DNA of 63,059 bases, filler included, from Collodictyon triciliatum (taxonomy: Eukaryota): NCBI GenBank assembly GCA_043381765.1. It is 9 parts of 9 records of this genome, joined end to end, with 100 filler letters (N's around TTAATTAATTAA, not from the genome) between each part and the next. Parts side by side here need not be neighbours in the genome. Positions count along the whole stretch, not along the records: positions 49,131 to 56,045 come from JBHJMP010004167.1; 8 more parts are not named here. One strand, 5' to 3'. The notes beneath the pieces are model-generated. The model was not told where the DNA came from. It saw nothing but the letters and a program-made list of their open reading frames with translations, and did no database searches. Shown here piece after piece: positions 3,522 to 55,165 of this stretch. The position numbers and the translations under genes are program-made. Numbering within the stretch: the first letter of the stretch is position 1; each line of letters begins with the position of its first letter.

Positions 3522-5171
3522 ATGCAAGAGGACTTCTTTGACGCAAAGCTTTTTCTTAATCAAGAGTAAGTGGTTGTTTTCCTTTGCCATTCTTGAGCTC
3601 TTTTGGTCTCGACTCTTGTCAGGGACTGCCCTTAACACTCTCTCTCCCTCCTTCCCTCTGTCAGTAAATCGAAGCAAAAGTTGTAGAGAACTGTTGAGAA
3701 ACTGGGACTTCATAACCTGACCCGCCTTTGCTCTTATTCGCGCAGGTATTCTGTGCGTCGTTACGAATACAATGAATTCTCTGTAAGCATATCCTGCCTG
3801 GACTCATCCTCAAGTAAGTCTTGTGCCATTTCATATTCCTGCTGTACATGATGCTGCTTTTCTTCTGCCTTTTTACTTATGTTTATCTTTTTTCTTTCTT
3901 TCTTTCTTTCTTTAATTAGGATTTTTAGACATTATTGACCCAACCTCTGAACTTTCATCCGTTTTCTTGAATGTTTCTTGAATAATTACTGGTATATTAT
4001 TTTAGCCGACTTTGACCTCACCGGGCAGATTTTATGGCCTGCTGCTGATGTGCTGTCATATTACATATCCACACACCCAGAGACATTTATTGGGAAGCGA
4101 GTCTTAGAAGTTGGCGCAGGGGTCGGGCTCTGTGCTCTGATGATTGCTAAATATTGCGGGCCGGCCCATGTCATGCTTACCGACCACAATGATGTTGTCA
4201 TGGATATTATTCGCACGAACATGGAAATCAATGCTCCTTACAGTGAGATACATGCTGCACCCAGTTTTCTAAGCCCTGTTTTTTTATTATGCCATTTTTT
4301 CGCTTTTGAATATTTGTGATTGGTTCTTACATTAAAAATACCATCATTATGATTATTGCAGATTGCGATGTCTCTGAAATGACGCTGGATTGGAAGGAAT
4401 GTGAAATATCAACCCTTCAACCGAAATCATACGACCTCATCGTTGGCTCGGATATTTTGTTCGTCTATACATTAGTTGAATTTCGATATTTTGTATGTGT
4501 GACCAAATAATGAAGTGCTTTTATCCTTTATTCGATTCGAAGTCCAAATAATGAAGTGCTATTTAATCCGTGAATACATTCATATTCTCTTGCATGTACT
4601 CGTATCCTAAACTTTCATCGTTGGATAGATTTTGGCCCAATTCTGTGCAGCCCCTTGTTGAGACGGTCGATCGGTAAGTAGATGGGCGAGAAATATAACA
4701 TGTGGCATCTGATTAGTATCGTTTGATAAGCGAACCAAAAGAAGATAAAAGGCTGAAATGATACATACCTGATCTGATTTAGCCCAGATGCGTTGCTTTA
4801 CTCACCCATGCCCAAACAGCTTCTTGTCAGAGGACGCCAACGCTAGATTCATAGTCGCCTTCCGCCCGCGCAACATGCTCGTCCATAATCTTTTTCTTGA
4901 TGGAATATCATCCAAGGGATGGGCCATTCAGCAAGGTGAAAACTCTATATGTTCGGCATCCGCTATGTCCATTTTGAGGACAGCTTCGGTTTGTGGGAAA
5001 ATCTGCGAATGAAAGGTGTGGTACACCCAACGCAAACCCAAGCACCCAAGGGAAGCTAGTTGTCAAAATGTCTGACTATATTTTAATCTTTATTTCATAT
5101 CAGAAAACATCAGCAAGTGGATGCCTGAATTGCCCCGGGAGGAGGTCATACTCTACATAATCAAAAGATGA
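3522..5171 (+). CDS. Family-16 (METTL21/EEF1AKMT-like) SAM-dependent protein methyltransferase, multi-exon
   Basis: MQEDFFDAKLFLNQE|YSVRRY...TDFDLTGQILWPAA, motif I RVLEVGAGVGL, MLTDHND, LDW, YDLIVGSDIL; ends VILYIIKR* (TGA 5169-5171). Confidence 0.88.
4503..4560 (-). mobile_element. Tail-only (24 bp) antisense insertion of LINE family A with a perfect 17-bp TSD, in a methyltransferase intron
   Basis: CCAAATAATGAAGTGCT at 4503-4519 and 4544-4560 flanks the reverse complement of ACTTCGAATCGAATAAAGGATAAA. Confidence 0.85.
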
Positions 5172-13409: not shown

Positions 13410-13936
13410 GGGACAATAATGAGCTGTGGACGAGACAGTAGAAACCCCAGATTGTGTGGCTGGAGGTTTTGTGTTTTGGGTGGAAGGAAAGAAAAATCGA
13501 CTAACAAGATAGAAAGGAGAGAAAATGTTCTCACACGTAGACTAATCTACCCAAAGTGGTTCAGCTCCAACGCGATTTCTGGTTGTGTTCGAGACTGGCA
13601 GAAGAGCGGATAAACTTGTCGGGTCGGTGAAAGTGCACATGACAGTTACTTCTCGAGTCGATTCCGACGAGTCCTTTTAACCGTTTATCTCAGACAAGAT
13701 TTACATCCTATTTCATTCCACAGGACGAGTCTTTTGGGGGGACAACGGGTCACTTTCCTTACGTTTCTTGCTGAGTGACTCCGATAGAAAGCGATATATC
13801 GTTGTTCGTCTGGTATTATCGAAAGTGACGCTTGATCGTCCCCTGGCATCGGGACCATGCGTAGCCGGCAGTGGACTTTGCTTAACCGGAGTATGGATAC
13901 GCGTTTGTGGTTTTAGAAACATACGCTCCTGCTTGC
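13410..13936 (-). mobile_element. Interspersed repeat family C, 3' part (copy 1)
   Basis: High nucleotide similarity to 28808-29340 in opposite orientation; carries the ORF end ...NTRRTTIYRFLSESLSKKRKESDPLSPQKTRPVE*. Confidence 0.8.
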
Positions 13937-15480: not shown

Positions 15481-17086
15481 ATCACGGAGTACACCTGACA
15501 GCGTCGTCTCAAAGGAGATGTCCAGATTCCTTGCACAAAATCTCATTTGTATCTTTCATGCTCTCTCTCCATTTCTCTTTTCTTTTTTCTCCGGTTTATT
15601 TCTTTTTCTGATATTTACCAATTTTTCTCGTTCTTTTCTCTTTTTTTCTTTTTATTCACGAAGCGTCGTATTGGTTCAATTTTACTTCCTTCAACAATAT
15701 GCGCTATTTAAAAAAAATGAGAGTGAAGAAACGAAAATATGGCGAACCATCAATTGGAAAGACTGTTCACTGCTATGAAATGCTACTTGATAATCAGTGG
15801 ATAATAATGGTTTGTTTTACCGTGTGTTCATCATATGCTTACTTGTGTTCAACACTCCATCCCCGCTGTCGAGTGATCACATAGATCCCGCCCTAGTTGG
15901 TGTCCCGATGAGACCTGAATAAATTGGAGGAAGCATTATTTTCTCATGTAGTCAAGGCTCTCTAAACATGAGGATTGCCTGATGGTGGAAAGTTCCTTAA
16001 GTCTTCTGCTCGAACCCCACGCCAGAAAGTGTTGTTCTACACCAAACAGGGGGCTGCCTTTGCGGTTTGGCTTGGTGGTTCGATAATGATTTCTCCAGTC
16101 GGTAGCCCTCGTTATAATGCACTTGATTTCTAATTATTTTCGTTATGCCCTCGACTTGGCGAGTTATTCTTTGGTTCAAACTATCAAAAATGAGAGCGCG
16201 TAATGATTAATTATTATTTCCACATATATGTCATTTCCTACATATTTCTACCAGAATATCTATCTTTGGAGAACACTCGGAGATTTGGCAAAAAAACACT
16301 AATATATTCATCCCAATTCACATCCTATTTTTGGAAAATACAGCTTTTGAGTGCAGACAATTATACTAAAATAGAAAATATTTACGCAGAAATATCCTAT
16401 TTGATTAGTAGTCGGTTGCACCACGAAAATCGCTCTTTATTCATAGAAACAGCCCGTTTCTGGACATATTTTCCTCGGCAATACAGGCTGCTGAAAGCCT
16501 CGGAACAACAAAATCTGACTCTTACTCAGCATTGCGCCCCACGCTGGTTAGTTGAGGTATTTGGCAGTCGCCATGATTGCGAGTTGGGAGAGTCGGGAAT
16601 GTCTGGGCCGCCCTGCCTGCCCCTTGGAGCGCGTTGTGGGCTAAGGCCATGTCTGCATCTAAGTATACCCATGCATCTATCTTACTCCGTCACAAGAGCC
16701 CGACCCAGCTTGTTGGTATATCGAATACTCATGGCCGGCGGTCTGCCGCTCTAAAATTCTCTGCAGTTAGACCTGTGGCTCGGAAGGCGGATCGGCTATC
16801 GGTCTCGGCTGCTGCGCTGTCTGTGTTGCAGTAGATCCACTCGTCTTTCATGATCGCGGGCCGCGGCCTCATTTCTCTGGCTGGCGTGCTCGTATTTCTT
16901 TCAGCTCCCGTCCAGTTGTTCGCTTTGCTCTATTCCAAATGGCAAAATCTGCGAATTATGTGCGGTAGCAGAAAAAAAAAGCGACAAAAACTAATAAATG
17001 TAAGAAAAATTGGGATATTGATTAAATAAAAAAATAAACATCTAATCCTTCGTTAATAGCTCCTTTTTTTTACTTTTCGTTTCGGT

Positions 17087-17236
17087 TCTGACCAACTTGC
17101 TATCATTAATTTCTTTCTAGTGCTAGCCCTTCCATGGCAGGGTCTTCTCGCGTTTGCTCCGTTCCATAGATACCTATCTCGCCCCTTGTATGGCATAACC
17201 TCCCAGCACTTTGAATCGAATAAAGGTTAAAAAAAT
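17087..17236 (+). mobile_element. 5'-truncated LINE family A 3' end
   Basis: Degenerate DQLAIINFF coding end, the 3' UTR TCGCGTTTGCTC...GTATGGCATAACCTC and the terminus CACTTTGAATCGAATAAAGG, matching 53518-53725. Confidence 0.85.
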
Positions 17237-17466
17237 ATTTTTTTTCCCTTTTAATTTGTGCAAGATTATAAATGTTTTGGCTTTGGTTCTCTAGCCATCA
17301 TTTGCATTGACGCTACTTGGTGGCCGGGTGGCGGAGAAGTAGTCGGTAATCAGGAATTGTATCCTGCAGTTTGGCCTGTAGTCTGGGTCTTGTGCTTGCA
17401 TGAGAGATACAAGGCGAAGTTGAATCTCTTTCTCGGCTTCCTTCCACATGTCTCTTCTCACAGAGT
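17237..17466 (-). mobile_element. 5'-truncated LINE family B 3' end (copy 1)
   Basis: The reverse strand encodes RRDMWKEAEKEIQLRLVSLMQAQDPDYRPNCRIQFLITDYFSATRPP, similar to the family A ORF2 C-terminus. Tail TCTTGCACAAATTAAAAGGG-A(n). Homologous to 43470-43568 and 54941-55165. Confidence 0.75.
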
Positions 17467-21199: not shown

Positions 21200-23090
21200 C
21201 ATCAGCAGAGGCTCGCTGAAATCCATCTACTTTTGAATTGTATAGCGAACGAGCCGAAAGGGATGCTGTTGGACCAACAGCACGAGCGCACCGACCAGCA
21301 ACAGCAACCTCGTATTCTCCTCAGTCAGGGGCGAAGAAACTTGGAAGCCTTCGCGGCTCTCCTTTGACCAAATCACCGAGTTCCAAAGATATCACTCCCC
21401 GATCACTCACGGGTAGACGGATCGACTCCAGGAACGAGCCTCTTCATCAGGTCGTGGACAAGGACCAGGCCTATAGTTCAAAAAGTCTGGCGACGCGGGC
21501 ATTCAGAAAAATCGAAGGATCTATTAACGTTGTATGTGTGTAAAACAATCCATCTCATAAGCCTTTTTCGAGTGAAGAGGATAACACCTCAGCGTATTTT
21601 GCTTGAATTGAACAGAAATGCGTATAATTATGTTATATCGTCTGTTTGCAGAGTGACATGATGTTGTTTATTATCAGTTTATTCTTTTATATGTTTTCAG
21701 ATATGTAACCACTTTGAAGAGGTTGATAAAAAAGTAGAAAAAGGGTGCCTTGTTTACTCTAATTTCCTTCTTGCTCTGCAAGATCGTGAACTGGGAGTGG
21801 TATATCAGAAGAATAATATTATTCATTACAACTCATGTATATAATATACTTATACATTACTTACATAATACATCATCTGAAATATTAATATTTGCATTAT
21901 TATATGGAATTATACAGCTAGGCGATTATAGAAGGCGCCTCACAAAAAACATCCAATCAAATGAAAATCGAATCCCCAGTATACGCGTATTGTTGAAAGC
22001 ACTGCAATTTATTCGCTTCCGTATGAGCCAATCGGCGGAAGCACCAACATCTGCAAAGGATGCACTTTTAAAATATGTCCCTTTACATACAATATCACAA
22101 GTTATTCGTTTCACTACTATCCCAAAGAGCAGTTTCTACGATCCAAGGCAGATTCATATACCAAATATCAATTTCTTTCTTCCCGACAAAATAACTTATT
22201 CGAAGGACATGACCAATCGCCATGACTCGGTATCCCGGGAGTTCACCCCGATTGAGTTTGATTACAATTCGGTATCAAAGCCCAGGAAGTCTTATGGCCT
22301 ATGCGCTTATCGCACGAATGACTTGGATATGCCTTCTGGTTTCTCAATCAATCCGATGACAGGCCATGTTTACGTCTCTGACACAAAAAATCATCGTATA
22401 AGGGTGCTTTCTGCTGATTTGCAGTATATCGCCACGTTCGGAGATAAAGGCGCTCCGGGAGACAGAGTGCAGAGTCCTATGGAACTAACCATCTCTCCCA
22501 ATGGAGAGCGTGTGGCAGTAAAGACAATGTCCCATATATTAGTTTTATACAATCGTCGTGGCCAACTTATCCGAAGGATAGATGGGAGGTCGCTGCCTCC
22601 AGCATATGTGTTTTCCTGTATTAAACATATCGCATTCGATAGTCACAATCATCTGTACGTTTTCGGATGCTATGACATGAACGTCCGAATGTTTTCGGTG
22701 GATGGGGAGTATATGGATTCATTCCCCATCCCTGTTGAAAAACAAGGTGATGTAGTTGAAGGGGTCATTATCGACGGCTATGACAATATAATTTATGGGC
22801 TGAACCCAAGTCGAAAAATTATTGTCTGTACAATCAGAGGTGAGAAAATTAAATCCATTCCGCACAAAATAAAGGGGTTCGTGTCTCAAATAACCAGAGG
22901 ACCGCGGAATGGATATTTGGTTGCATCGAGACTCACTTTTGGCCAATCCATAGACTCTGTTTACTTCTGCAACTCTAAATTCCAAATACTCAAGGAACTT
23001 ACACTCATGAATGGGCGCTATGTTGCAATATCGCCAGGTGGCCGGTTTTACGTGCTCAAGCCAACAAATAATTGCATCGAGATGTACTGA
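21200..23090 (+). CDS. NHL-repeat six-bladed beta-propeller protein; 5' exon structure uncertain
   Basis: Long terminal exon with LDMPSGFSINPMTGHVYVSDTKNHRIRVL...FGDKG, IAFDSHNHLYV and VAISPGGRFYV...NNCIEMY*. Confidence 0.85.
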
Positions 23091-28084: not shown

Positions 28085-29410
28085 TCTACCAACTACCGCT
28101 GGACGTGTGGCCGCAACTCCTTCGTGAGGAGCTGAAGCCGTTCAGACCGACCCACGTGGAGATCAAAAAGGACAAAGGCTTCTTCACAGACACGGCCGTG
28201 GTGAAGCTTCTCTGTCACAAAAACCAGCTCCCTGCAAAGTTTACGGTCATGGGTAAGAAGTGTCCAAAGCGCATCCTCAAAGAGCGTCCGCCAGTTGCGA
28301 ATAACGAACGACAAGTAAAAGCCCCGCAAAAGATTACACCCGCCAGGCAGACAAGCAGCAACGGGGTCAAGGAAGCCAAGGCCAGGCAACAACGGAGTCC
28401 GCAAGACTCACAGCAGATACGCGCATGCAGCGACAAGGACAATGACATGGAAGGAAATCTCGGTTCCTCTTCAGAATCCTCGCACTCGAGCCCCTTCTCC
28501 ATAGCCAACACCGGACAAGCCCGTACATCGCGAGACCCAATAGCAGCGCATCTCCAAACCCCGAAAGAAATACCCACTTAAACTACCCATTCAGACTGAC
28601 GTGAATATTGTTAACATAGGAGGCCTCAAGGCAGTCTTCGTTACTTATCCGAAAGGATACTCCAAAGCGAAGCAACACAAGAACCAGCGCCCACCAAAGA
28701 TAGGCCGTTTCCCCTGCCCCAGCCCGTCTCATCGAGAACCAAGGAGCAAGAGCAAACACCACAAGTCGAATCCAAGCTTGGAACTTCACACACCAAAGAC
28801 AGCCCGAGCAAGCAGGAACGAATGTTTTTAAAACCACAAACGCGTATCCATAATCCAGTTAAGCAAAGTCCACTGCCGCTACACATGGTTCCGAAACCAG
28901 GGGACGGTCAAGCGCCACTTCCGATAATACCAGACAAACAACGATGCATCGCTTTTTGTCTGAGTCGCCCAGCAAGAAACGCAAGGAAAGTGACCCGTTG
29001 TCCCCTCAAAAGACTCATCCAGTGGAATGAAATAGGATGTAAACAAGTCTGGGATAGACGGTTGAAAGGACTCGTCAGAATCGATTTGAGAAGTAACTGC
29101 CATGTGCGTACTATCATCGACCCGACAACTTTATCTGCTTTTCTGTCAGTCTCGAATACAACCAGAAATCGCGTTGAAGCTGATTCACCTTGGGTAGAAT
29201 AGTTTGCGTGTGAGAACATTTTCTCTCCTTTCTATTTTCTTTTTCTCTTTCCTTTTCTTTCTTTCCACCCAAAACACAAAACCTCCAACCACACAATCCG
29301 GGGTTTTCCACTGTCTTGTCCACAGCTCATTTCTTGTCCTAGAGGCGAAGGCGGTTTCCTCGGCTTTGTTTTCTCTCAATAAACTGTTGAAAAGAAACCA
29401 AAAAAAATAA
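28085..29410 (+). mobile_element. Interspersed repeat family C (copy 2): degenerate ORF1-like protein plus 3' region, 5' end in the gap
   Basis: GC-rich, intronless, frameshifted ORF (YQLPLDVWPQLLREELKPF...FTDTAVVKL..., then S/P/K-rich) ending QTTMHRFLSESPSKKRK...PVE*. The 3' part is repeated at 13410-13936 and 34190-34330. Confidence 0.65.
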
Positions 29411-38200: not shown

Positions 38201-40041
38201 TGGTTTGTATTGCATTCTTAATCCAAATTATCCCCTATTAAAGACCTTTAAGCAAATGCTCGAAGCAATTCTTCAAACTACTTTTTCTTGTTTTTTTATC
38301 TTGCTGAATAGGAATAATATTTTATTACCTCGAAAATCTAATGTTTCTTTTACAATACATAGAGAAAGAAGTATCTAGAAAAGTAGTGTACATCGACAAA
38401 GTGTTGCTCCCTCAAAAACTAACGATGAGGGATAAGAATCAAATATACTACAAGCTTGCATTCGAGTCATTATCTCTCAAAGGAGTTTGCAGACAATACG
38501 GACAAATGCCAACCGAGCATATTGCTCAAGAAAAAAGGCATGGATCCACTTTGGATACGGAAACAAAAACGGAAAAAGATAGTAATTTCTACGCCAGAAA
38601 TGTTCCAAACGTAAACATAGAGCAAGACAACTTATTATACAACGTATGGATGTTTGGTGACATCAAGGTGCTCATCAGATGCAAAGTTCATGGTGGAATC
38701 CGAGACCCAAACACTGCAAAGGTATTTCCACAATTGATATGATAGGACATTATTTGCTTCCTCCTTCTTTTCGTCTTTTCTTCTTTTCTTCCTCATTTAT
38801 CGACAAATAAGGCATTATATCTTATTATTGCTTTCTTTGAAGTCACCTGTTTGAAATCATAGGGAATTCGATACGTGGGAATACAAACGAAACTAGAGTA
38901 TCTTAAAAACTATGGATGGGAAGAGGATACAGTGAGCGAGCTGGCCCGTTGGTGGATATACTCTTTTATTCGGCCAGATGCCCACCTATACATAGGTCAT
39001 TACCAAATATGCGTTAATCTGCCGATTTATTTTTATGCTGGGAAGCGCACACAAATATAACCAACCATTTTTTGAAATTTTAATTCAATCTTGCCCCCAT
39101 TTGAGTAACTATAAATAAATAGGCCGTATTGATCCAGCATCATCAACACTACTTTCTGTCGAGAGGAGAGGAATGACAGACATAATATACCAACAAGGAC
39201 CATTTCAGTAATTCTTTTTTCTATTATTCTATTTGAATCTATTTTATTTTGTGTAAGGCCGTTTTTGGAAGGAAAATTATATTTACACCCACCATTATGG
39301 CGACGCTTCTTGGCACACTTGCAAGTATTAATTGAAGTATTTGTTAACCCTCAAAATAGACCGCCTCAATTCATGAAGCAGATTTTGGTCATATTCCAAA
39401 AGCTACGAGAGCTTCCAACAGGCTCATATGTCTTACAACACGAGGGAAATGCCGATTGCCTAAAAATAATTAAAAGTGTTGATGACGAACCCATCACACC
39501 GGAGGATAGAAAACCAATAATCGATCTTCATCAAACCATACAATCAAGCGGCGTTACAGACCGGGTGAATATGCCTTACATTCCTGTCAAGTGGGTACCA
39601 ACGAGCGACCAAATTCCGTACACGTTTCCACACGCCCCATCAGCAACTGCCGAAAATATTTGCTACATATTTGCGATGCACGGAAATTGCTCGAAAGGAA
39701 AATTGGTATGTTTACATATTAAATTGAATACACATGCCCGAGAATACGCGAGTGAGAACATCTGGCGATAACAGGCAATCTGTTTTATAGAAAAAAATGA
39801 ATCAGATTTAATCCGTCTTCTTTATATGTATAATTACCTTTCAAAGCCATTCCTTTTCTTTTTATAGTGTAAATATGTGCACGAGAAACTCCCCAGGCAC
39901 CTATGGGAGTCGTATGGAATACTACCGCACAAATCCATGAATACAAATTGGAAAAAGACAAAAAAGGCTCAAAAGAAGAAGAAAAAGAAACAAGTCGCTG
40001 CGCCTGCAGCCAATCTAGCCCAGAAAAAAACCACCCAATAA
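35240..40041 (+). CDS. Little elongation complex subunit ICE2/NARG2-like protein with a C-terminal CCCH zinc finger, multi-exon, probably 5' partial
   Basis: NARG2_C-like motifs DIVISSSALRALID, VYIDKVL, YNVWMFGDIKVLIRC, TKLEYLKNYGWEEDTVSELARWWIYSFIRP, IG|RID and LPTGSYVLQH. CCCH finger ICYIFAMHGNCSKGKL|CKYVH. TAA at 40039-40041. Confidence 0.75.
37559..37610 (+). mobile_element. Tail-only (22 bp) insertion of LINE family A with a 15-bp TSD (1 mismatch), in an ICE2-like intron
   Basis: AATATCATTTTGATT and AATATCGTTTTGATT flank TTTGAATCGAATACTGGAAAAA. Confidence 0.75.
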
Positions 40042-42015: not shown

Positions 42016-42115
42016 NNNNNNNNNNNNNNNNNNNNNNNNNNNNNNNNNNNNNNNNNNNNTTAATTAATTAANNNNNNNNNNNNNNNNNNNNNNNNNNNNN
42101 NNNNNNNNNNNNNNN

Positions 42116-42837
42116 GCGTTTCTCCTCCTAGACCAAGAGAAAGCCTACGACCGAGTGGAGCACGAAGTAATGATTAAGGTACTCAAAGCGAGAGGAGCTC
42201 CGGATAACATCATCAACCTTATCCAAAAATCATACGAGGACGCCCCACTTCGAGTTATTGTCAACCACGGTTTCACCAAACCTTTAGTTAGGACTCGAGG
42301 TGTGTTCCAAGGGTGTCCGTGTGCCCCAATAATATACAACTTCATAGCTGATATACTGGCGAAGGCAGTTAAAACAACAACCAGAGGAATGCATCTCAAT
42401 CCCACAACGCACATCCAAATAGCTCAATACGCAGACGACACTATGATTTTCCTGGAAGACCAAGAGGACGCACAAAGAGCGATTGAAGCAGTGTCACGTT
42501 TCAACAAAGCTACCGGAAGTCGAACAAACTTTGCCAAATCCAAAGGTGTTGTCTTCTCGAAGGACAATATAGATGCCTTCCCACCTATGGTTCCATGGCA
42601 ACCATCAAACGAACCCATTAAGTACCTTGGCATCCACTTTTGTACTGACCCTCACAAAATAAAGGTCAACTGGGACAATCTCAGTCTAAGCGTTGTCAGG
42701 ACTATCAATGTCTGGAAAAAACATGGCCTGTCAGCAGCTGGAAAAAAAGTTGTCTGGAACACCTTTATTCTTCCCAAGGCTTTGTATTCAGTGACTGGGG
42801 CGGAAGTCCCTGAAGGATGGATTCAAAGCATAGACCT
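42116..42837 (+). mobile_element. L1/Tx1-clade non-LTR retrotransposon ORF2, reverse transcriptase fragment (open frame, bounded by gaps)
   Basis: LLLDQEKAYDRVEH, RGVFQGCPCAP, QYADDT, TGSRTNFAKS, IKYLGI, LSAAGK. Confidence 0.95.
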
Positions 42838-43469
42838 NNNNNNNNNNNNNNNNNNNNNNNNNNNNNNNNNNNNNNNNNNNNNNNNNNNNNNNNNNNNNNN
42901 NNNNNNNNNNNNNNNNNNNNNNNNNNNNNNNNNNNNNNNNNNNNNNNNNNNNNNNNNNNNNNNNNNNNNNNNNNNNNNNNNNNNNNNNNNNNNNNNNNNN
43001 NNNNNNNNNNNNNNNNNNNNNNNNNNNNNNNNNNNNNNNNNNNNNNNNNNNNNNNNNNNNNNNNNNNNNNNNNNNNNNNNNNNNNNNNNNNNNNNNNNNN
43101 NNNNNNNNNNNNNNNNNNNNNNNNNNNNNNNNNNNNNNNNNNNNNNNNNNNNNNNNNNNNNNNNNNNNNNNNNNNNNNNNNNNNNNNNNNNNNNNNNNNN
43201 NNNNNNNNNNNNNNNNNNNNNNNNNNNNNNNNNNNNNNNNNNNNNNNNNNNNNNNNNNNNNNNNNNNNNNNNNNNNNNNNNNNNNNNNNNNNNNNNNNNN
43301 NNNNNNNNNNNNNNNNNNNNNNNNNNNNNNNNNNNNNNNNNNNNNNNNNNNNNNNNNNNNNNNNNNNNNNNNNNNNNNNNNNNNNNNNNNNNNNNNNNNN
43401 NNNNNNNNNNNNNNNNNNNNNNNNNNNNNNNNNNNNNNNNNNNNNNNNNNNNNNNNNNNNNNNNNNNNN

Positions 43470-43568
43470 GTTTACATGAACGCTACTTGTTGGCCGGGTG
43501 GCGGAGAAGTAGTCGGTAATCAGGAATTGCATCCTGCGGTTTGGCCTGAAGCCTGGGTCTTATGTGCC
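43470..43568 (-). mobile_element. LINE family B 3' fragment (copy 2)
   Basis: Encodes RMQFLITDYFSATRPTSSVHVN; nearly identical to 17305-17400. Confidence 0.8.
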
Positions 43569-44334: not shown

Positions 44335-45530
44335 TGAAACGAAAATATTGTGACACTTATAATCAACAACCCTGCCCTCGGTCTCACACTCGCTTTCCCA
44401 TGATATGGAAGCGCAGCAAATCTCTTTAAGTTTGAGTCCTTTCAGCACCCTGTTCACCAATGCGTTTCCACACTATCCAATACCGGGCTCATGATCGTGC
44501 ACGTATCTTATATCCCGTTGGGACCCAACCGGAACGGCGTTTCCAAAGCATACAGTAAGTCATTCATGTCAATCGAGCTCAAGAGGAGAAAGTTCAGAGG
44601 GATATGCCTGAACGATGAACTCATCACCTTTCGCCTGAAGAACCAAAGGCGGTCCATTACACCTGACTCTCCGCAATTCTCTATGGCCATGGCGTACTCC
44701 AAGCTGTTTCGATACAAAATCATCAGTCCGAATCCCTACAAACCGGAGAAAATGAGTCGTTGGGCCGAAACTATTGACATTATAGACCCGCCGATAGTCA
44801 AAAGCTGGAAGCAAGCCCGTATATCTCAGCTACTCCCGAAACACCGCGCTCTACTGCTCAATAATATCTCCAACAGAGAGCTGTGGATAGGTGTGCGTGT
44901 ATTCCATGCAGCAACGACCTCTCCAGAATGCACCATGTACCATAGTGGAGATGACTCTATCGAACACATATTTGTGAAGTGCTCTCTTGCTCAAAAAGTG
45001 ATAGAATCTACCCATAAGATGCTCTCTGAGCTTGATTATGCTCCCAACCGACTCAGCGCGTCCGACATCCTGTTTGGCCCACAATACCGAATGACCCACG
45101 ACTCTAGAATACTCTGGACAGTCATAAGGGGACATATGTTGTAGTCCCTATGGAGTGTACGTGCATTCTCTCGCTCTAAGATTACCCGAACGAGAAATCA
45201 ATGTATCGAGGCTGAAAAGCCTCGTGCAATACAGCTTCCTGAACAGCCTGCTGAAACACGCTCGCATTCTTCACTACTCTGACCGCAAGCGATGAGAGAT
45301 GTGGGAATGTGTCGTGCGATATCTCCCACAGCATATCCAACCGCTGCTACCCACGCAGCCAATCAACCAGTTGGGCCGCCCGCCTGACCAGCTCGCTATC
45401 ACTGATTTCTTTCCGGTGCTACCCTCTCCACGGTAGTGTCTTTTACTAATCGCGTTTGCTCTCTCCCGTGCGTCCCCATCCCGCCCATTTGTATGACATA
45501 ACCTCGCTGCACTTTCAATCGAATGAAGAG
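44335..45530 (+). mobile_element. LINE family A ORF2 C-terminal region and 3' UTR, degenerate copy
   Basis: zf-RVT-type region (C..Y...DSIEHIFVKC) with internal stops and a frameshift; ends QLAITDFF, then the 3' UTR and CACTTTCAATCGAATGAAG terminus. Close homolog of 52800-53725. Confidence 0.9.
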
Positions 45531-46088: not shown

Positions 46089-48877
46089 TCAGTGGAATGG
46101 CGGTGGTGGCGGGGGAGGCAAAATGCCAGCAGGTGGCGGAGGTGGCGGCATTCCCATAGATGGCGGAGGGGGTGGCGGTAGATTGCCAGCGGGAGGCGGA
46201 GGCGGTGGTAGATTGCCAGCTGGGGGTGGAGGCGGTGGCGGCATTCCTGATGATGGAGGTGGAGGCGGTGGTAGATTGCCAGCGGGAGGCGGAGGCGGTG
46301 GTAGATTGCCAGCTGGGGGTGGAGGCGGTGGAGGCATTCCTGTTGATGGGGGTGGAGGCGGTGGCGGCATTCCTGATGATGGGGGTGGAGGCGGCGGAGG
46401 CATTCCTGATGATGGGGGTGGAGGCGGTGGTAGATTGCCAGCAGGAGGTGGAGGGGGTGGAGGCCCTCCTGATGATGGAGGTGGAGGCGGTGGTAGATTG
46501 CCAGCAGGAGGTGGAGGAGGCGGAGGCATTCCTGATGATGGGGGTGGATGCGGTGGAGGCCCTCCTGATGATGGGGGTGGAGGCGGTGGAGATGCAGGCG
46601 AGGAGGCGGCTGAAGTGGCGCTGGTGGAGATGGAGGGTGGGCGAGCAGTTGGTGTGGTGTTTGCAGGGGTTTCCTCGCGTAGGGTGGTCACCTTGAATTC
46701 CTCCACGTATTCATGGGCGGGTGGGTGGAAGACGGCAATCTGAGAGTGAGTGAGTGAGTGAGTGAGTGAGTGAGTGAGTGAGTGAGTGAGTGAGTGAGTG
46801 AGTGAGTGAGTGAGTGAGTGAGTGAGTGAGTGAGTGAGTGCGAAAGGGAATTACCCGCTCGTCCTCGAAGGGGCAGTAGTTTTGCAGAATGGAGAAGATG
46901 GACGTGTTGAGGTCACGCATGGCGATGCAGTTCGAGATGAATAGCTGCATGGTCTGTGTGCGTGTCATGAGCGAGGTGTGAGTCAGTGAATCTTGGTATT
47001 GTAGTCACTCTGCGTGCCTATTTATATGTGGACCAAGAATAACAATTATTTTCGATTCGTACGGGGTCCAGGTTGGCCATCCCAAGGGCTTGCGCGGCGT
47101 TGAGGATATGGTAGCAAAAGTCAAACACTTCCAAGCGGTGGTGTTGATTCAAAAAGTAGATGATGGTAATTCCTGAGACATGGAATTGACGCAATGGAAA
47201 AGTAAAACCAGAATGCAAAAGTAGAGATGGGTTACCATATGATACCGTAAAAAAGTAAAGTTTTTATTACATAAGCTCATGCATTACACAACTACACGAT
47301 AGCTTTGATGAAAAGGATGCCATGCATGCACAGAGGATAGACATATGAGGCCAGCCAATAGAAAAAGCAAACAATACTGTAAAATGCTCTCACCAGCCCA
47401 TGCCCATCCATCCCCATAACACTCGAAGCAATCGGGAACTCGGCGCACTGGCTCAACTGGCTCCTTGCTCTTGGGGTCACGCGGTTCTGGTTTCGGTTGG
47501 TCAGGCGGCAGGCAGAAAATGAACTGAAGGGAGCTCCACAAGCGGTAGAATTCCTATGCATAACGTAAAAATAAAATAAGATAATCAATCAAGGGCACAT
47601 AAATATTAGAGTTCGAATCAGATTTGTCTATTGCTTAGTGTTTCCGCTTCGCCCAATTTGTTGTTTTTTTTTAAAAAAAAAAAAGAAAAGAAAAAGAAAA
47701 AGAAAAACTACAAGAGAAAACGAAGTTACTATATGGATTGACATTCTCTGAAGATATAATCCTTCATACTCTGGAGTTATCGATGGGGAACATGTCTGCG
47801 GGTCCAAGATTGGCGCACCATTCAGATTTTAATGGGGACAGAGCAGATTGAAACCTAAACTCAGAGAATAAAATTAAAATTTCAGTAACAAAAATAAAAA
47901 TAAAAACCAAAAAAACAAAACCTACTTGTTCAAAAAATACTTGACAAACGACTTTCCTTTCTCTGGTTTGTACATCTCCTCTGGTAATAAAAGTACATAT
48001 ATTCGTTAAATGTTTAAATGTACTGATTATTGGCGGGGTTGCTTTCAGATAGAGGCAATTTTGAAGATTAAGAGGAAAGAAAAATTACCAGCTCTGGCAG
48101 CGATATTTGGAATATGTGCCAAGGCATCCGCATTTCGCGCAATCCCATGTCCAAGCAACCCAGATAACTGTAATAAACCCATCAATATTCAGTAATAGCT
48201 TTAATCATCCAACTGCACACAGTCAGTCGAAGAAGCAATCTAGGAATAAAGCTCAGAAAGAAAAATGGATAGTCAAGCTTACTTGTAACACAGAGTCCAT
48301 GAATGGAGATGAAGGAGGGAGAATGTTATCATGAGAAACTCCAAGGAAAGGAGCGGCTTGCATGTAAGTAAAGAGTTCTACTTGGGCCTGTGCACAGTAA
48401 AGCGAAAAAAAAAAAAAAAGATCACGTTAAGTATAAAGATAAAGCAGTGATGGGCACTGTTTCAACTTTAAACCCCAAAAATATCACATAGTCTACATGA
48501 AAAACCATTCGAAAAAAGAAAGCTATACCACAGCGACATCGAGAACTCCCATCAGCGCCAAGCTGTTGCCAATCGACCGAATGGTTTGGAACACCTCAGA
48601 CTTCAGCTCTTCATATGCGATGTAGTCTTTCAAAAGCAGTTGGAAATAGCCGAAAATTCCTGTTTGGTACAAGTGATTGGTTATGCAGGGAAAAAAGGAG
48701 AAGACAGGTGGATATATCCAGACTCCATAATACTCCGCTGGAACTTTACGAAAGATGGTTCATTTGATTAGAGATGAAGATAAAACCTTGGACACCGTAG
48801 TCGAACAGAGGTAACTTTGTGGAAGGCGGGAGACCAGAAATAAGCTCTCTGATGTATGGCGCCAAAGTTTGTTGCAC
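46089..48877 (-). CDS. CYFIP: CYFIP/Sra1/PIR121 (SCAR/WAVE complex subunit), 3' part, with a long polyproline C-terminal tail
   Basis: [74 protein letters not shown] and FHPP; stop at 46089-46091. Confidence 0.92.
46743..46839. repeat. (GAGT)n microsatellite in the last CYFIP intron
   Basis: Perfect tetranucleotide run. Confidence 0.95.
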
Positions 48878-48972: not shown

Positions 48973-49030
<58 letters not shown>

Positions 49031-49523
49031 NNNNNNNNNNNNNNNNNNNNNNNNNNNNNNNNNNNNNNNNNNNNTTAATTAATTAANNNNNNNNNNNNNN
49101 NNNNNNNNNNNNNNNNNNNNNNNNNNNNNNACGCGCACCGCCCGCAGAATGGATTCGAGGCACGCGGCGCATCAGTCTCTATGTTTGTCAGGCTGACACA
49201 TCCGATCACGAAGGCCGGCTCTGTCTCCGGAAGTGGGCGGCGATTTATCTCTGTCGAGGGGAGCAGACGGACAGCCTGGTTGCGAAAGGTGCATCCACAT
49301 ATGGAAGGGGCGATGGCTGCTATATGCGTAAGGAGAAAAACGGCAGAGTTCCACGCTTGTAACGGGCGTTCCACGCAAGGAATGGCTGGCTATCCGTCTG
49401 CTCGTTCAGTGTTTTAGATTAAAAAAAAAATTAATTCTGATCCACTTTGTTTTTCTTCTACGCTCAGTTTCAACAAAAGAGAAGTTCATATCCTAATCAG
49501 TTCATACATCACGCCAGAATCAC

Positions 49524-49603
49524 AACGCCCAGAAGCGATTTTTTTTTTTTTTTATTCTTCCTTTCAACTTTTGTGCAGGACCGAGGGAACGCCCAGAAGC
49601 GAT
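49524..49603 (-). mobile_element. Tail-only insertion of LINE family B with a perfect 16-bp TSD
   Basis: AACGCCCAGAAGCGAT at 49524-49539 and 49588-49603 flanks the reverse complement of CCCTCGGTCCTGCACAAAAGTTGAAAGGAAGAAT-A(n). Confidence 0.88.
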
Positions 49604-49902: not shown

Positions 49903-52550
49903 CTACGCACCGAACTGCGAGAAAAAGAAGTTTTTTGCCCATTCTTAAGTGCTCATCGTCACCGCACACGAAATAGGTATGCGAGTGAGACGTGCGTTGA
50001 GTCCCATGAAGAAACCATGGTACCCTTGATTTAGCGCGACGTCTTTGATAACTGCTGTTGTCGTTGACGATTTTGCCTGCTTTCACGTATAAATTCGAGC
50101 GTGGTTAAAATAGATTGTATGGGAATCATCCCAAAGTAAAATAGCCACTAGGGTGACCTTGCAGATATCACAAGTGTAGTAAAGAAACTGGAATCATTAT
50201 CAAGGCGGTATAAAGAGTACTATGTTAGAAAGATGAGAATGACTGAATGGATGAAAGAAAGAAAAAACAACCAGGGTTCCACAATTCCCGACAGTGACTT
50301 ATATTCTGGTCTTTACAACATCTGCTGGATTCGTTACGATTGCAGCAATGGCTCCGGAGGAAGCGGCTGTCATATGCAATGTTCATCTCTTAAAGTAATT
50401 TTGAAACTTTTGATTCATCCAGTATTTATTATACAATTGACTTTTTATTTCATCGGATATAAACCTAACCAGCCAGAAAATGTGTTACATAAACAGGAGA
50501 ATCATTTTGGGCGGGCAGGACGCTTCGGTAATATACTGAGTCTTTCATATCCAAACCAATATCTATTTTTTTTTCGAATTAAATGAAAGGGCAATTTATT
50601 GAATATTACCAAATGATGTCAGGGATTCTTTTATAATTATAGATAAAAATATGCTTGGGCATATTTTTTGTACATGAATTATAAATAAGACACCGAGGTT
50701 TTTTTTTTTAAAAAAAAAAGAAAAATAAATATCTAAGGTGTTCGTAATTTAAGGCGCTTTTCAGAGACTATATCAATGAGATAATGCATCGCAGAAATAG
50801 GAGCGTCTCGTACGATTGTAGCGCCTAGGGATACATATTTAACGCTTCGAATAAATAAATCATCAACCGAACAGCGATGAGATTATGCGATACAGAGAAA
50901 AGTTGGCGAGGTCAACGAAGAGAAATATCTATATATTTGGTATCCTTTGAATCGAATAAAGGGAAAAAATATATCTATTTGGCATATTTACCAAGACTAG
51001 TCCAAAGTGATGCGACTCCACATTTTCTGACTACTCGGTGTAGAATTTCAAAAGAACCTGAATCACCCGTTTTAGTCATATTTTTGATAGGACCATAAGA
51101 TCAACTCTTCGTTGGCTTTATATATTTATCATTATTATTATATTACTAATCGCGGCCTTGTCTTTGTTGAACTGCATATTGGTTCTGAGTAATTCAAGAG
51201 GTAGGGTAGCGGTGACAATCAAAGTTCTACTCAGACCACCTGTAGTTTAAATTGGTTACTTTAATAGTTGCTTTGTGGAACATACTGCTTGGAAATTTAT
51301 GTTATTCCGTTTGTGCCGTCAAAAAAAGAAGGGGGAAAACCTGCTAATAGAGGAGAATATTCTGAAATAACTTTATGGTGGTTGCGTTCGAGAATGTACT
51401 TTGTTTTTTCATACAAACTAAAGTACCTGTATATCATAAAGAATTATCGCTCAGTCGGAAGGTTTTTGAATGATTGAATCCATCTCAAACTATGTTAGAA
51501 ATTTGGCCCATGTGCGACTAGGCTCGAAAATTAAAGGAACAAACAATGCCGAGGATGGAAGAACCATAAGCAAGGTTGGCCTCATTCCCCTCCATAAGCT
51601 TACTACACCTTCTCGGTGGGCAATAGAACGCAATGTGGACTTCGAAAAAAGAGGGGAAAAAATGAGGATATCAATTAGCTCGTGGCACATAATAAAAAAA
51701 ATGAAATGTAAAGGATGCCCAGAAGTTCATGGTGGCGAATATCATACGTGGATAACAAAGTCAATAAACAGATGGAAATAGTTCTTATTAACCGCCCCTT
51801 TTGTGGGGATAAATACGGATGAATTGAGGGATTGCCAGTTGATAGGTTGAGAAAAGCTTCGCGCATACCTATATTCCCCTACGAGTGGTTTCTAATGCAT
51901 GATTCGTTGGCTGGGTCAGGTTGTGCGTCTGGAGTCTCACTTTGGCGACCTCAAAAGGCGAAACTAAGTGGAAAGTCTTTAGAATCTCAATATTGCATGC
52001 TAAAGGGAGAAAATCCAGCTCTAAGAAGATTGATACGGCCATCAGAAGAAAATTGTATAATTAAATCGCAAGGGGAAAGAAGATGGATTTGGAAGAAAGA
52101 CAAGACACTAAATAAACCTTTTTTTATTTAAGAATATTTATGAGAAGAAAAAAGGGGTAAGCCAGTTACCAAAGAACGATGTGATAGCAGCACTAGAGGC
52201 AGCTGACAAGGAGAGAGCGGCAAAGACACAAGAGCTAAAGGGATCTCTGTCTAAATAGTGGGTTAGAGGGTATCAGGGTGGTTATTGTAGATCTTTGCCC
52301 GACAAACACCGAGCCACTCGACAAGAGGGCAAGAGTTAGCGACTTACATAGTTGTTCCTTCCGATTTTTAAATATAAGTCATATAAACTGGCTCGCAACA
52401 CAACGGGTAATGCGAAGGAAAAAAGGAAGGCACTTTTACCTGGTGAAGCCATTCCTTTTGGCTGGATTTCTGCTGTTGGAAGCGAGGCTTCTTTGGTCTT
52501 TCAAGGCTTTGAGCTTAATGTCACTTTGTGTTGCTGAAGCAGTGGGGTGA
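49903..52550 (-). pseudogene. SLC25A39/40 (Mtm1)-like mitochondrial carrier, intron-containing pseudogene
   Basis: Three carrier repeats: SPFEVAKVRLQ...EGVVSLWRGMRPTLLMVLPSSALYFSLYE; LPLELLRTNMQ...ATIVRDAPISAIYWFGYE; TNPADVVKTRI*...GFFMGLNARL...CAVTMST*EWAKNFF. In-frame TAA at 50299-50301 and 49945-49947. Confidence 0.8.
50923..50985 (+). mobile_element. Tail-only LINE A insertion with a degraded TSD, in a carrier intron
   Basis: CTTTGAATCGAATAAAGGGAAAAAA between the imperfect repeats ATATATTTGGTAT and ATCTATTTGGCAT. Confidence 0.65.
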
Positions 52551-52799: not shown

Positions 52800-53725
52800 G
52801 ACTCCTCGTAATTCTCGATGGCCATGGCTTATTACAAGCTCTTTCGATATAAAATCATCAGTCTGAATCCCTACAAACCGGAGAAAATGAGTCGTTGGGC
52901 CGAAACCATAGGCATTATAGACCCGCCGATAGTCAAAAGCTGGAAGCAAGCCCGATTATCTCAGTTACTCCCGAAACACCGCGCCCTACTTCTCAATATC
53001 TCCAACAGAGAGCTGTGGGTAGGTGCGCGTCTGGTTCATGCAGCAACGACCTCTCCAGAATGTAACATGTGCCATAGTGGAGATGACTCTACCGAACACA
53101 CATTTGTGAAGTGCTCCCTTGCTCAAAAAGTGACAGAGTCTACCCACAAGATGCTCTCTGAGCTTGATTATGCTCCAAACCGACTCAGCGCGTCAGACAT
53201 CCTGTTTGGCCCACAATACCAAATGGCCCACGACTCTAGAATACTCTGGGCAGTCACAAGGGGACATATGCTGTGGGCCTTATGGAGTGTGCGCGCATTC
53301 TCTCGCTCTAATGATTCACCCGAACGAGAAATCAGTGTATCCAGGCTTGAGAGCCTCGTGCAATACAGCTTCCTGAACAGCTTGCTGAAACGCGCCTGTG
53401 TTCTTCGCTACTCTGACCGCAAGCGAAGAGAGATGTGGGAATATGTCGTGCGATATCTCCCACAGCATATCCAACCCCTGCTGCCCACACAATCAATCAA
53501 CCAGTTGGGTCGCCCACCTGACCAACTCGCTATCACTGATTTCTTTCCAGTGCTGTCCTCTTCGCACTAGTGTCTTCTACTCGCGTTTGCTCTCTACCAT
53601 GCGCTCCCATCCCGCCCCTTTGTATGGCATAACCTCGCTGCACTTATAATTTTTTTTTTTTATTCTTCCTTTCAATTTTGTGCGGGATGCCGCTGCACTT
53701 TGAATTGAATAAAGGGAAAAAAAAA
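52800..53725 (+). mobile_element. 5'-truncated LINE family A copy with an intact ORF2 C-terminus (zf-RVT), 3' UTR and A-tail
   Basis: ORF 52818-53570: CNMCHSGDDSTEHTFVKC (CCHC), LWALWSVR, ending QLAITDFFPVLSSSH*. Terminus TTGAATTGAATAAAGGG-A9. Confidence 0.92.
53636..53700 (-). mobile_element. LINE family B tail nested antisense in the LINE A 3' UTR, with a 10-bp TSD
   Basis: CGCTGCACTT at 53636-53645 and 53691-53700 flanks the reverse complement of GCATCCCGCACAAAATTGAAAGGAAGAAT-A(n). Confidence 0.85.
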
Positions 53726-53727
53726 GT

Positions 53728-54930
53728 TTCGGTTTATACGGTTGTCAGCTTCATCGATTCGGATATCGAGACTTATGTAGCAGCCTGGAATAATCTCTCT
53801 GAAGCGAGGATTGAGCTTGGCTATCCATTTCTTGCATAAAAACGCTACACCTGCATGTCTGTTGATTATCGTCACAGGACCTCATTTGTGGACGTTTTCA
53901 TGTTTCATTGTTGGTTAGATTGTCAGGGCTGAGCCATGTTTCTTGGAGGCAGATGATATCTGCGTGAGAGAAAAGAGCAGTGTTTAGGGCCTCTTTTCTT
54001 TTTTGGGGGTCGTTAATCCCCTAACGTTCCACGACAGAACGTTAAAACGCATGAATAATCTATTGGCTTTTGGAGGCCATAGCCTCCGGTGATTGGCCCT
54101 CTCCGCTGGAGCTGGGTTGCTCAGGGTGGGATGGTTTACTCGATTTGTCCTTCATTTGGCCGGTGTTATAATTGCTCGCGGTTCGGCCAGGATATATCGG
54201 ATGGTCTTGGGCTTTTGGCTACAGCCCCTTTGTAGCTGGTGTGTTGGCAGATGCACTCTATCGGTCACTAGCAACCCTCGGTTCCAATTTTCTATCTCAT
54301 CCACACGGTAGGCAGGGCCAACCATGTTTCCGCTTTCATTCTGGCTTGCTTTCTGGCTCGCTATATTCGGTGGTGTACTTGACTGATTCACACTCTTCTC
54401 ATTAGGCGATGCTTTATCTTCGACGGTTTCGCTCTTTTTTGGTGCGCCAGGGATTGCAGGATGAGTAGCCGGTGTTTTATATTCGTCTACGTTTCTTTTT
54501 CTTGGATAGGAAGGTGTTTGTCGCTGGGAGGCGCAAGAGTTTCGACAGCAGGTCTGTTTTCATAAACAGTACTTGAGGAGTAATTTGTCGTTCCCGAAGC
54601 TTCAAGGTGCTCGCTTTCTTCTTCAGCAGAACCTTCTATGACGACGACAGGTTGGATGGACTGTTGTTCTTCCAATCCCGAGTCTGGGACGTTGCTTCTT
54701 ATGGATTGCGCAGTACTTGCTGAAGAAAGAGTCTCTTGAGTGGTTCCAGGAGCCATGACCTCTAAGGAGGTAGGCGGGTGTGGTTTGCTGGGTGCCATTA
54801 TGCTGTTTCCCGATTCTGTTACCGAGTTGGGTTGGGGTTCCCTTTCCTCGGCATCCTCTCTATGATTTAAAGGAGAGCTTGGTGAGATATCACCGGCTTG
54901 GGGTGGTTTCCTTCTCCACCTGCGCGTTCT
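53728..54930 (-). mobile_element. Degenerate LINE 5' segment: ORF1 C-terminal low-complexity region and ORF2 APE endonuclease N-terminus
   Basis: ATG at 54052: MRFNVLSWNVRG(frameshift)INDPQKRKEAL...DIICLQETWL, then HAGVAFLCKK...IIPGCYISLDI. These are apurinic endonuclease motifs. A S/P/T/E-rich broken ORF lies upstream. Confidence 0.85.
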
Positions 54931-54940
54931 CTACTCCTCA

Positions 54941-55165
54941 GACCCTGTGAGAAGAGACATGTAGAAGGAGGCTGAGAAAGATATTAAACCTCGCGTTGTA
55001 TCTCTCATGCAAGCACAAGACCCAGGCCACAGACCAAAGCCGCAGATGCAATTTCTGATTACTGGCTACTTCTCTGCCACCCAGCCAACGAGTAGCGTCC
55101 ACACGAAACAAGGCAGGCACCTTGGAGATAGGAACTCCATCTCCACACGCAAAAAAAAATAAAAT
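54941..55165 (+). mobile_element. LINE family B 3' fragment (copy 3)
   Basis: DPVRRDM*KEAEKDIKPRVVSLMQAQDPGHRPKPQMQFLITGYFSATQPTSSV followed by an A-rich tract. Confidence 0.8.

Follow-up and report, generated by a model that had tools for sequence, protein, structure and literature searches.

The window analysed here is a stretch of 63,059 nucleotides (nt), filler included, joined from nine parts of nine records of the Collodictyon triciliatum genome (GenBank assembly GCA_043381765.1); all positions count along it. It carries 3' ends of L1-like retrotransposons lacking long terminal repeats (non-LTR elements), or long interspersed nuclear elements (LINEs), in which the second open reading frame (ORF2) closes with a peptide resembling the PCNA-interacting protein (PIP) box, Q-x-x-[ILM]-x-x-[FY]-[FY]. 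The pattern common to the group, Q-x-x-I-T-[DN]-[FY]-F, is by its sequence that of a TD-type PIP box, and the manner of its retention among relatives indicates a short linear motif under protein-level selection. We consider it probable, if well short of certain, that this motif is a genuine C-terminal TD-type PIP box of the ORF2 protein (ORF2p) of L1-like, APE-type non-LTR retrotransposons. That PCNA is the partner, and that the element would thereby be coupled to replication or repair, we infer from the motif itself. A PIP box had been proposed for this DNA in an original prediction, which is borne out in part, by selective conservation at the motif.

Family A copies and the terminal motif

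Two 5'-truncated copies of a single L1-like non-LTR element, designated family A, carry the motif, and both sites are 3' ends that are 90% identical. Direct translation gives QLAITDFF at each of the two positions named in the original prediction. In copy 2 it lies at 53523-53546 (+), encoded by CAA CTC GCT ATC ACT GAT TTC TTT and followed by PVLSSSH and a TAG stop at 53568-53570, seven codons past the motif; in copy 1 it lies at 45389-45412 (+), encoded by CAG CTC GCT ATC ACT GAT TTC TTT and followed by PVLPSPR and TAG. The tail quoted as the last 14 amino acids of ORF2, QLAITDFFPVLSSSH, counts 15 residues. The label ORF2 itself holds for the C-terminal 250 codons, which are open in copy 2 (52818-53570), but neither site is more than a 3' piece. 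The features of family A in the window are as follows.

52818..53570 (+): uninterrupted C-terminal part of ORF2 in copy 2 of family A (250 codons and TAG; zf-RVT domain, PF13966, E=1e-7)
53061..53114 (+): CCHC zinc knuckle C82-x2-C85-x8-H94-x4-C99, read from the translation
53487..53567 (+): predicted disordered tail with the motif (residues 224-250, predicted local distance difference test (pLDDT) <50, weak model)
53523..53546 (+): PIP-consensus motif QLAITDFF in copy 2 of family A (residues 236-243 in the 250-codon fragment; conservation peak across five subfamilies)
53571..53726 (+): 3' untranslated region (UTR) of family A copy 2, terminus ...GCACTTTGAATTGAATAAAG and a short A run, with an insertion of ~55 nt at ~53646-53700
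44629..45528 (+): family A copy 1, decayed 3' piece reaching the element 3' end ...CATAACCTCGCTGCACTTTCAATCGAATGAAG
45389..45412 (+): PIP-consensus motif QLAITDFF, family A copy 1 (Q is CAG; CAA in copy 2)
17086..17225 (+): third family A copy, ~140 nt, truncated and dead, motif QLAIINFF (17093-17116) still fitting the consensus

The zf-RVT domain (PF13966) is found in copy 1 as well as in copy 2, and both carry the C-x2-C-x8-H-x4-C knuckle. This spacing is the non-mammalian L1 knuckle consensus as quoted in PMC5381506 (this and the other papers cited by PMC number are drawn on for the part of their text that was available), and family A thus has the C-terminal knuckle of an L1-type ORF2. Homology of copy 2 with copy 1 begins at ~52794; the decay of copy 1 is seen in an in-frame stop (45142-45144) and, against copy 2, a gap of 2 nt. 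Although their starting points differ, all three family A copies reach the element 3' end ...CATAACCTCGCTGCACTTTGAATCGAATAAAG plus a short A run, a common terminus ...GAATCGAATAAAG(A)n, and so display the 5' truncation, AATAAA and A run of such elements. Their 3' UTR is well conserved between copies, and its terminal 20-mer has six matches in the window, compared with 0.03 expected. Three of these 20-nt matches (..TTTGAATCGAATAAAG) lie apart from the copies described above, with 2-3 mismatches, at 2169-2188, 4526-4545 (-) and 50942-50961; possible sources are truncated copies of very small size or a short interspersed nuclear element (SINE) that has the LINE tail in common. The sequence of ~55 nt inserted into the copy 2 3' UTR (a T run and ATTCTTCCTTTCAATTTTGTGCGGGA) resembles a stretch at 49540-49585, and on the minus strand both 53646-53700 and 49540-49585 have the appearance of a different short retroelement's AATAAA-plus-poly(A) end. 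One contig of sequencing run X11 has the joint 53635>53691, omitting 55 nt of this 3' UTR.

Across the families the motif lies 7-14 residues upstream of the stop, in a tail that is probably disordered and that follows the CCHC domain. The AlphaFold2 model on which this is based was built from a six-sequence alignment and is poor (mean pLDDT 57). Its last predicted helix spans residues 201-221, about 14 residues before the motif, and this interval, with the low pLDDT (<50) of residues 224-250, lends weak support to the "flexible Pro/Gln linker" originally proposed. Most PCNA motifs sit in disordered regions, and TD strengthens binding (PMC6881253).

Conservation of the motif and the explanations weighed

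Relatives of the 250-residue fragment were collected with a full HMMER scan against 1.84 billion representatives (21 matches), a profile word search (12 matches) and a metagenome contig search (one locus, L001, of family A). These relatives derive from metagenome and Logan contigs and define subfamilies with 36-54% identity to the window copy; they included neither a longer protein homologous to the 250-residue tail nor a full-length ORF2 from families A-E. The window contains families A and D, and freshwater metagenomes contain B, C and E. At the site of the motif, the subfamilies read as follows.

Subfamily A (window copies, L001, P0010, P0028, P0029, P0035): QLAITDFF
Subfamily B (P0005, P0026, P0031): QTAITDFF, QTAITDYF, QTVITDFF
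Subfamily C (P0008): QSVITNFF
Subfamily D (P0030, P0021): QFLITNYF, QFLITDF-S
Subfamily E (P0007): QYFNTPFF

Family D was overlooked in the original prediction, which listed family A sites only. A tblastn search located it at three places in the same window, each with a form of the motif.

17240..17461 (-): family D (P0030-like) 3' end, QFLITDYF at 17336-17359, then SATRPPSSVNANDG and a stop
43479..43559 (-): family D 3' fragment adjoining an assembly gap, QFLITDYF at 43506-43529
54902..55160 (+): family D 3' end, decayed, QFLITGYF at 55049-55072

The strict consensus is matched by 16 of the 19 sequences that cover the site, namely all six window copies, L001 and nine of 12 database proteins; the form of the PIP consensus in PMC6881253 also admits V at the aliphatic position. 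The three misses are P0007, P0021 and P0009, the last of which has a frameshift within the motif; these may be dead copies. No sequencing run contained half or more of the words of the window; the 20 runs listed as containing some of them each had a small share, were mostly freshwater or subsurface metagenomes and included no RNA run. Contigs of runs X1, X4, X7 and X11 span both LINE 3' ends, with no variant of 53523-53546 among the matches listed, which is not evidence of invariance. At 55038, in family D, the loose-end consensus of X1 reads ...ATG CAA TTC CTG ATT ACC GAC and that of X7 ...CAA TCC CTG ATT ACC GAC, a change at an x position of the motif (the X11 consensus, with an agreement of 0.75, was left out, as were contig depths).

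The original prediction had named a comparison of the motif with its flanks as a test that could refute it, and the outcome is clearly in its favour. When one sequence from each of the five subfamilies was compared in 8-residue windows, mean pair identity peaked exactly at residue 236, with 0.56 for the motif window as opposed to 0.07-0.20 in windows covering the 28 residues before it. Conservation is thus confined to the motif, in a tail that cannot otherwise be aligned. The glutamine is retained in 5/5 subfamilies, the isoleucine in 4/5 and the aromatic pair in 5/5, with F invariably at position 8 and F or Y at position 7, while positions 2 and 3 vary freely (LA, TA, TV, SV, FL). Threonine occupies position 5 in all five subfamilies and is part of T-[DN] in the four canonical ones; in E, position 6 is P. 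Anchors are thus kept while x positions and flanks drift, as is characteristic of a PIP box.

A chance match without function, inherited from a recent common ancestor, is very improbable. The motif has eight residues with only four defined positions, and the first two copies found are 90% identical; as such copies have the motif by descent, they alone prove little, and the weight of the case for conservation comes from the diverged subfamilies. There the motif persists at 36-54% overall identity and a flank pair identity of 7-20%. A strict match within the last 45 residues was obtained in 12-68 of 20,000 shuffles per sequence, a probability of ~0.1-0.3% per tail. Six-frame translation of the window gave 17 strict matches (six of them LINE tails), whereas 200 shuffles averaged 6.2 (sd 2.4) and never exceeded 14. 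Among 15 more distant reverse transcriptase (RT)/ORF2 proteins (14,822 residues), there were no strict matches, with 0.64 expected, and a terminal motif is absent from every outgroup with a complete C-terminus (P0012, P0013, P0014, P0015, P0018, P0039-P0042, P0046). By this absence from distant ORF2 proteins, the tail motif is a derived feature of the A-E group.

Many LINEs require their own 3' end for recognition. If the end of the reading frame overlapped a 3'-end element recognised by the reverse transcriptase, conservation could operate on RNA or DNA and the peptide would be a by-product. The well conserved 3' UTR of family A and its recurring terminal 20-mer agree with such an element, but three observations leave this explanation extremely improbable. 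First, families A and D agree at only 15/24 nucleotides of the motif. Second, the motif occurs in 4/5 subfamilies with synonymous codon changes: family A has ATC ACT GAT ..TTT where family D has ATT ACC GAC ..TTC, so that four codons (I, T, D and the final F) each have another third base but specify unchanged residues, which places the constraint on the protein and not on the RNA. Third, within family A, synonymous changes per site exceed non-synonymous ones by about fourfold to fivefold (pN/pS 0.19-0.24 over 245-249 codons for copy 2 compared with copy 1 and L001; 0-0.22 in the linker). The sole change within the motif among copy 1, copy 2 and L001 is CAA/CAG, with no non-synonymous one. The low pN/pS and the synonymous differences indicate that the copies came from different active masters that had retained the tail. 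The third copy (17086-17225), a dead fragment of 140 nt, was for that reason not counted in favour of selection.

Several observations weigh against a PIP box. The sample is small, comes from short metagenome contigs and includes no full-length ORF2 of families A-E, and the six-sequence model of the tail is the poor one described above (mean pLDDT 57). In one of the five subfamilies, E (P0007, QYFNTPFF), the aliphatic position is taken by N; the sequence in P0021 is QFLITDF-S, and a frameshift interrupts the motif of P0009. The flanks of family A lack the net positive charge whose absence is tied to weak affinity in PMC6881253. Finally, position 5 is threonine without exception, E included, and the PIP consensus does not need this, so that another partner of overlapping specificity is possible.

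Such a partner, with the likeness to a PIP box coincidental, might be a Rev1-type FF reader or other host factor that recognises an aromatic pair, the ORF1 protein, or a groove of ORF2p itself (an in-cis latch). We regard this explanation as unlikely, though it deserves some weight. Conservation as such leaves the identity of the partner to sequence resemblance, T240 is invariant in 6/6 aligned sequences although a PIP box does not demand it, and subfamily E retains Q, T and FF while losing the aliphatic position. However, the kept positions are exactly i, i+3, i+6 and i+7 with x free, which is the geometry of a PIP box; the exchanges of F with Y (position 7) and of D with N (position 6) occur in known PIP boxes, as given in PMC6881253; and the strict pattern is absent from the 14,822 outgroup residues.

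The original prediction had read TD as a mark of high affinity. This does not follow, as the positive charge of the flanks dominates PIP affinity (PMC6881253) and the flanks of family A are about neutral; those of family D are positive, with an additional R at +4. A canonical PIP degron, as defined in PMC6881253, combines TD with a basic residue at +4, and both are present in family D (QFLITDYF-SATR) and in P0031 (QTVITDFF-AVPR). The peptide could thus act mainly as a degron through which PCNA-bound ORF2p on chromatin would be destroyed by CRL4-Cdt2, as host restriction or self-limitation. We consider this quite improbable for the group: the +4 residue is S or P in family A, H in P0005 and P in P0008, so that a degron cannot be the common selected function. 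It moreover presupposes PCNA binding, and is in that sense a sub-case of the PIP box.

If the motif is a PIP box, the tail would dock into host PCNA at its hydrophobic pocket and its Q pocket. Docking would tether the ORF2p ribonucleoprotein to clamp-loaded DNA, as found at replication forks, lagging-strand gaps and repair patches. Alternatively, or in addition, the tail may keep PCNA on the intermediate of target-primed reverse transcription, where host factors such as RNase H2, polymerase delta and ligase would then complete the insertion. Such a role has been proposed for PCNA in human L1 retrotransposition.

Other LINE pieces and features of the window

Family A copy 2 sits inserted within the 5' end of another LINE on the minus strand, and a further fragment encodes part of a reverse transcriptase.

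53735..54052 (-): 5' end of another LINE ORF2, APE endonuclease, MRFNVLSWNVRGL..., cut by the insertion of family A copy 2
42116..42835 (+): reverse transcriptase fragment flanked by two N gaps (RVT_1, E=1e-24)

The 5' end at 53735-54052 (-) matches residues 1-114 of P0015 and 1-100 of P0012 in tblastn, and the Exo_endo_phos domain (APE endonuclease) is found in the relatives P0012, P0014 and P0015. No copy of family A or D with a 5' half (APE region) was found in the window or among the relatives. The RT fragment at 42116-42835 is 46% identical to the full-length ORF2 P0012 and 100% identical to the metagenome protein P0037, and is not assignable to family A or D. It was considered as a part of family A copy 1 and rejected, because N gaps, a minus-strand family D fragment and ~1.8 kb intervene. 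Runs of N lie within the LINE-rich region at 42071-42115, 42836-43471, 43440-43468 and 48990-49130; as they interrupt it, the order of fragments near copy 1 may be unreal.

The family A 3' end on the plus strand (to 17225) and the family D 3' end on the minus strand (from 17461 downwards) abut tail to tail, and their junction at 17225-17240 is a single A/T run (GGTTAAAAAAATATTTTTTTTCCC). This arrangement suggests two independent insertions at the same A/T-rich site.

Elsewhere in the window, a Gly-rich tandem array of 30/33-nt units (~12 units, 46099-46652) is open in several frames and is followed by a (GAGT)24 microsatellite (46744-46840). Two inverted-repeat pairs (13483-13865 and 28878-29261), of 157-166 nt and 83-89% complementarity, lie ~15 kb apart and are probably two oppositely oriented copies of another repeat. 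Host-like open reading frames at 21738-23090 (+) and 39133-39771 (+) encode an NHL repeat (PF01436) and an NARG2_C domain (PF10505), respectively. An Rfam scan of the window returned 0 families.

Comparison with human L1 and other clamp-binding systems

Human L1 retrotransposition needs PCNA (PMC10830420, PMC7617806, PMC5371812), and the original prediction had contrasted the terminal motif with an internal PIP box in human ORF2p. This agrees with PMC10830420, in which the human box is an internal helix packed against the palm and fingers of the RT, and an internal PIP helix is also the view of PMC10830416; the box spans residues 407-415 or 404-419. It is now contested by PMC7617806, according to which the internal PIP may not be the true contact and PCNA is placed instead on a folded surface of the wrist domain, the 'PUB' motif (W1011, I1014, N968). 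The closest full-length relative of the window elements, P0012, has APE, RT and zf-RVT domains and is collinear with human ORF2p over residues 3-860 (E=2e-60). Where the human protein has IQTTIREYY, the homologous helix reads INAEVQRYY in P0012 and IEDEIHKFY in P0037; the helix is kept in both, but the canonical glutamine is missing, so that neither has a human-type internal PIP box. P0037 stands here for the RT lineage in the window, which is not assigned to A or D. The elements are alike in kind (APE, RT and CCHC in P0012) and in their proposed partner, PCNA. They differ in that the human box is an internal helix, whereas the peptide described here is a canonical TD-type one, 7-14 residues from the C-terminus and probably within a disordered tail.

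A PIP box in a transposon protein is already known from Pogo, in which the motif reportedly lies near the C-terminus. The Pogo transposase carries a PIP box and binds PCNA, the first such case for a mobile element (PMC5371812). Like the LINE ORF2p, the Pogo/Tigger enzymes are mobile-element proteins with a PIP box, but Pogo is a cut-and-paste DNA transposase and not a reverse transcriptase, and as there is no homology the resemblance is convergent. In bacteria, transposases such as Tn7 TnsE and those of insertion sequence (IS) families bind the beta sliding clamp, coupling insertion to replication (PMC5371812), and binding to the beta clamp by mobile elements extends to the group II intron protein RmInt1 (PMC6698660, PMC4549789). 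Here too mobile elements, a retroelement RT among them, bind a clamp through a short peptide; their clamp is bacterial, however, their motif is of the QL[SD]LF type and the proteins are unrelated. With p21 and Cdt1, the LINE peptides have in common Q-x-x-psi-T-D-theta-theta, to which family D adds the R at +4 that belongs to the degron definition of PMC6881253; across the LINE subfamilies, unlike in PIP degrons, a basic +4 residue is not kept. p21 and Cdt1 are cell-cycle regulators with strongly basic flanks and nanomolar affinity, whereas the flanks of family A are neutral. A search of open-access text and bioRxiv found no description of a C-terminal PIP box in a LINE ORF2, in line with what the original prediction had stated.

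A bolder proposal, which we hold only tentatively and regard as distinctly doubtful, is that this L1-like branch met its need for PCNA in a manner unlike mammalian L1, by losing the internal glutamine and gaining a C-terminal TD-type PIP box, with the peptide of family D forming a complete degron. ORF2p would then ride loaded PCNA as a polymerase or FEN1 does, reaching lagging-strand gaps, and the family D enzyme would be destroyed on chromatin after a single round. If this were true, it would provide independent evolutionary evidence that clamp recruitment is generally required for APE-type target-primed reverse transcription, and a simple peptide handle on that requirement.

The site of PCNA contact on LINE-1 is disputed between the internal PIP helix (PMC10830420, PMC10830416) and the wrist 'PUB' motif (PMC7617806). 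A terminal PIP box would be a clean handle on this question, as deleting the tail or changing FF to AA should spare the RT fold, in contrast to mutating the human helix, which is buried. Such a box would add to the mobile elements that converge on sliding clamps, which include Pogo, Tn7, IS elements and group II introns, and an unambiguous, terminal, selected PIP box in a distant L1-like lineage would point to repeated selection for clamp recruitment among APE-type LINEs.
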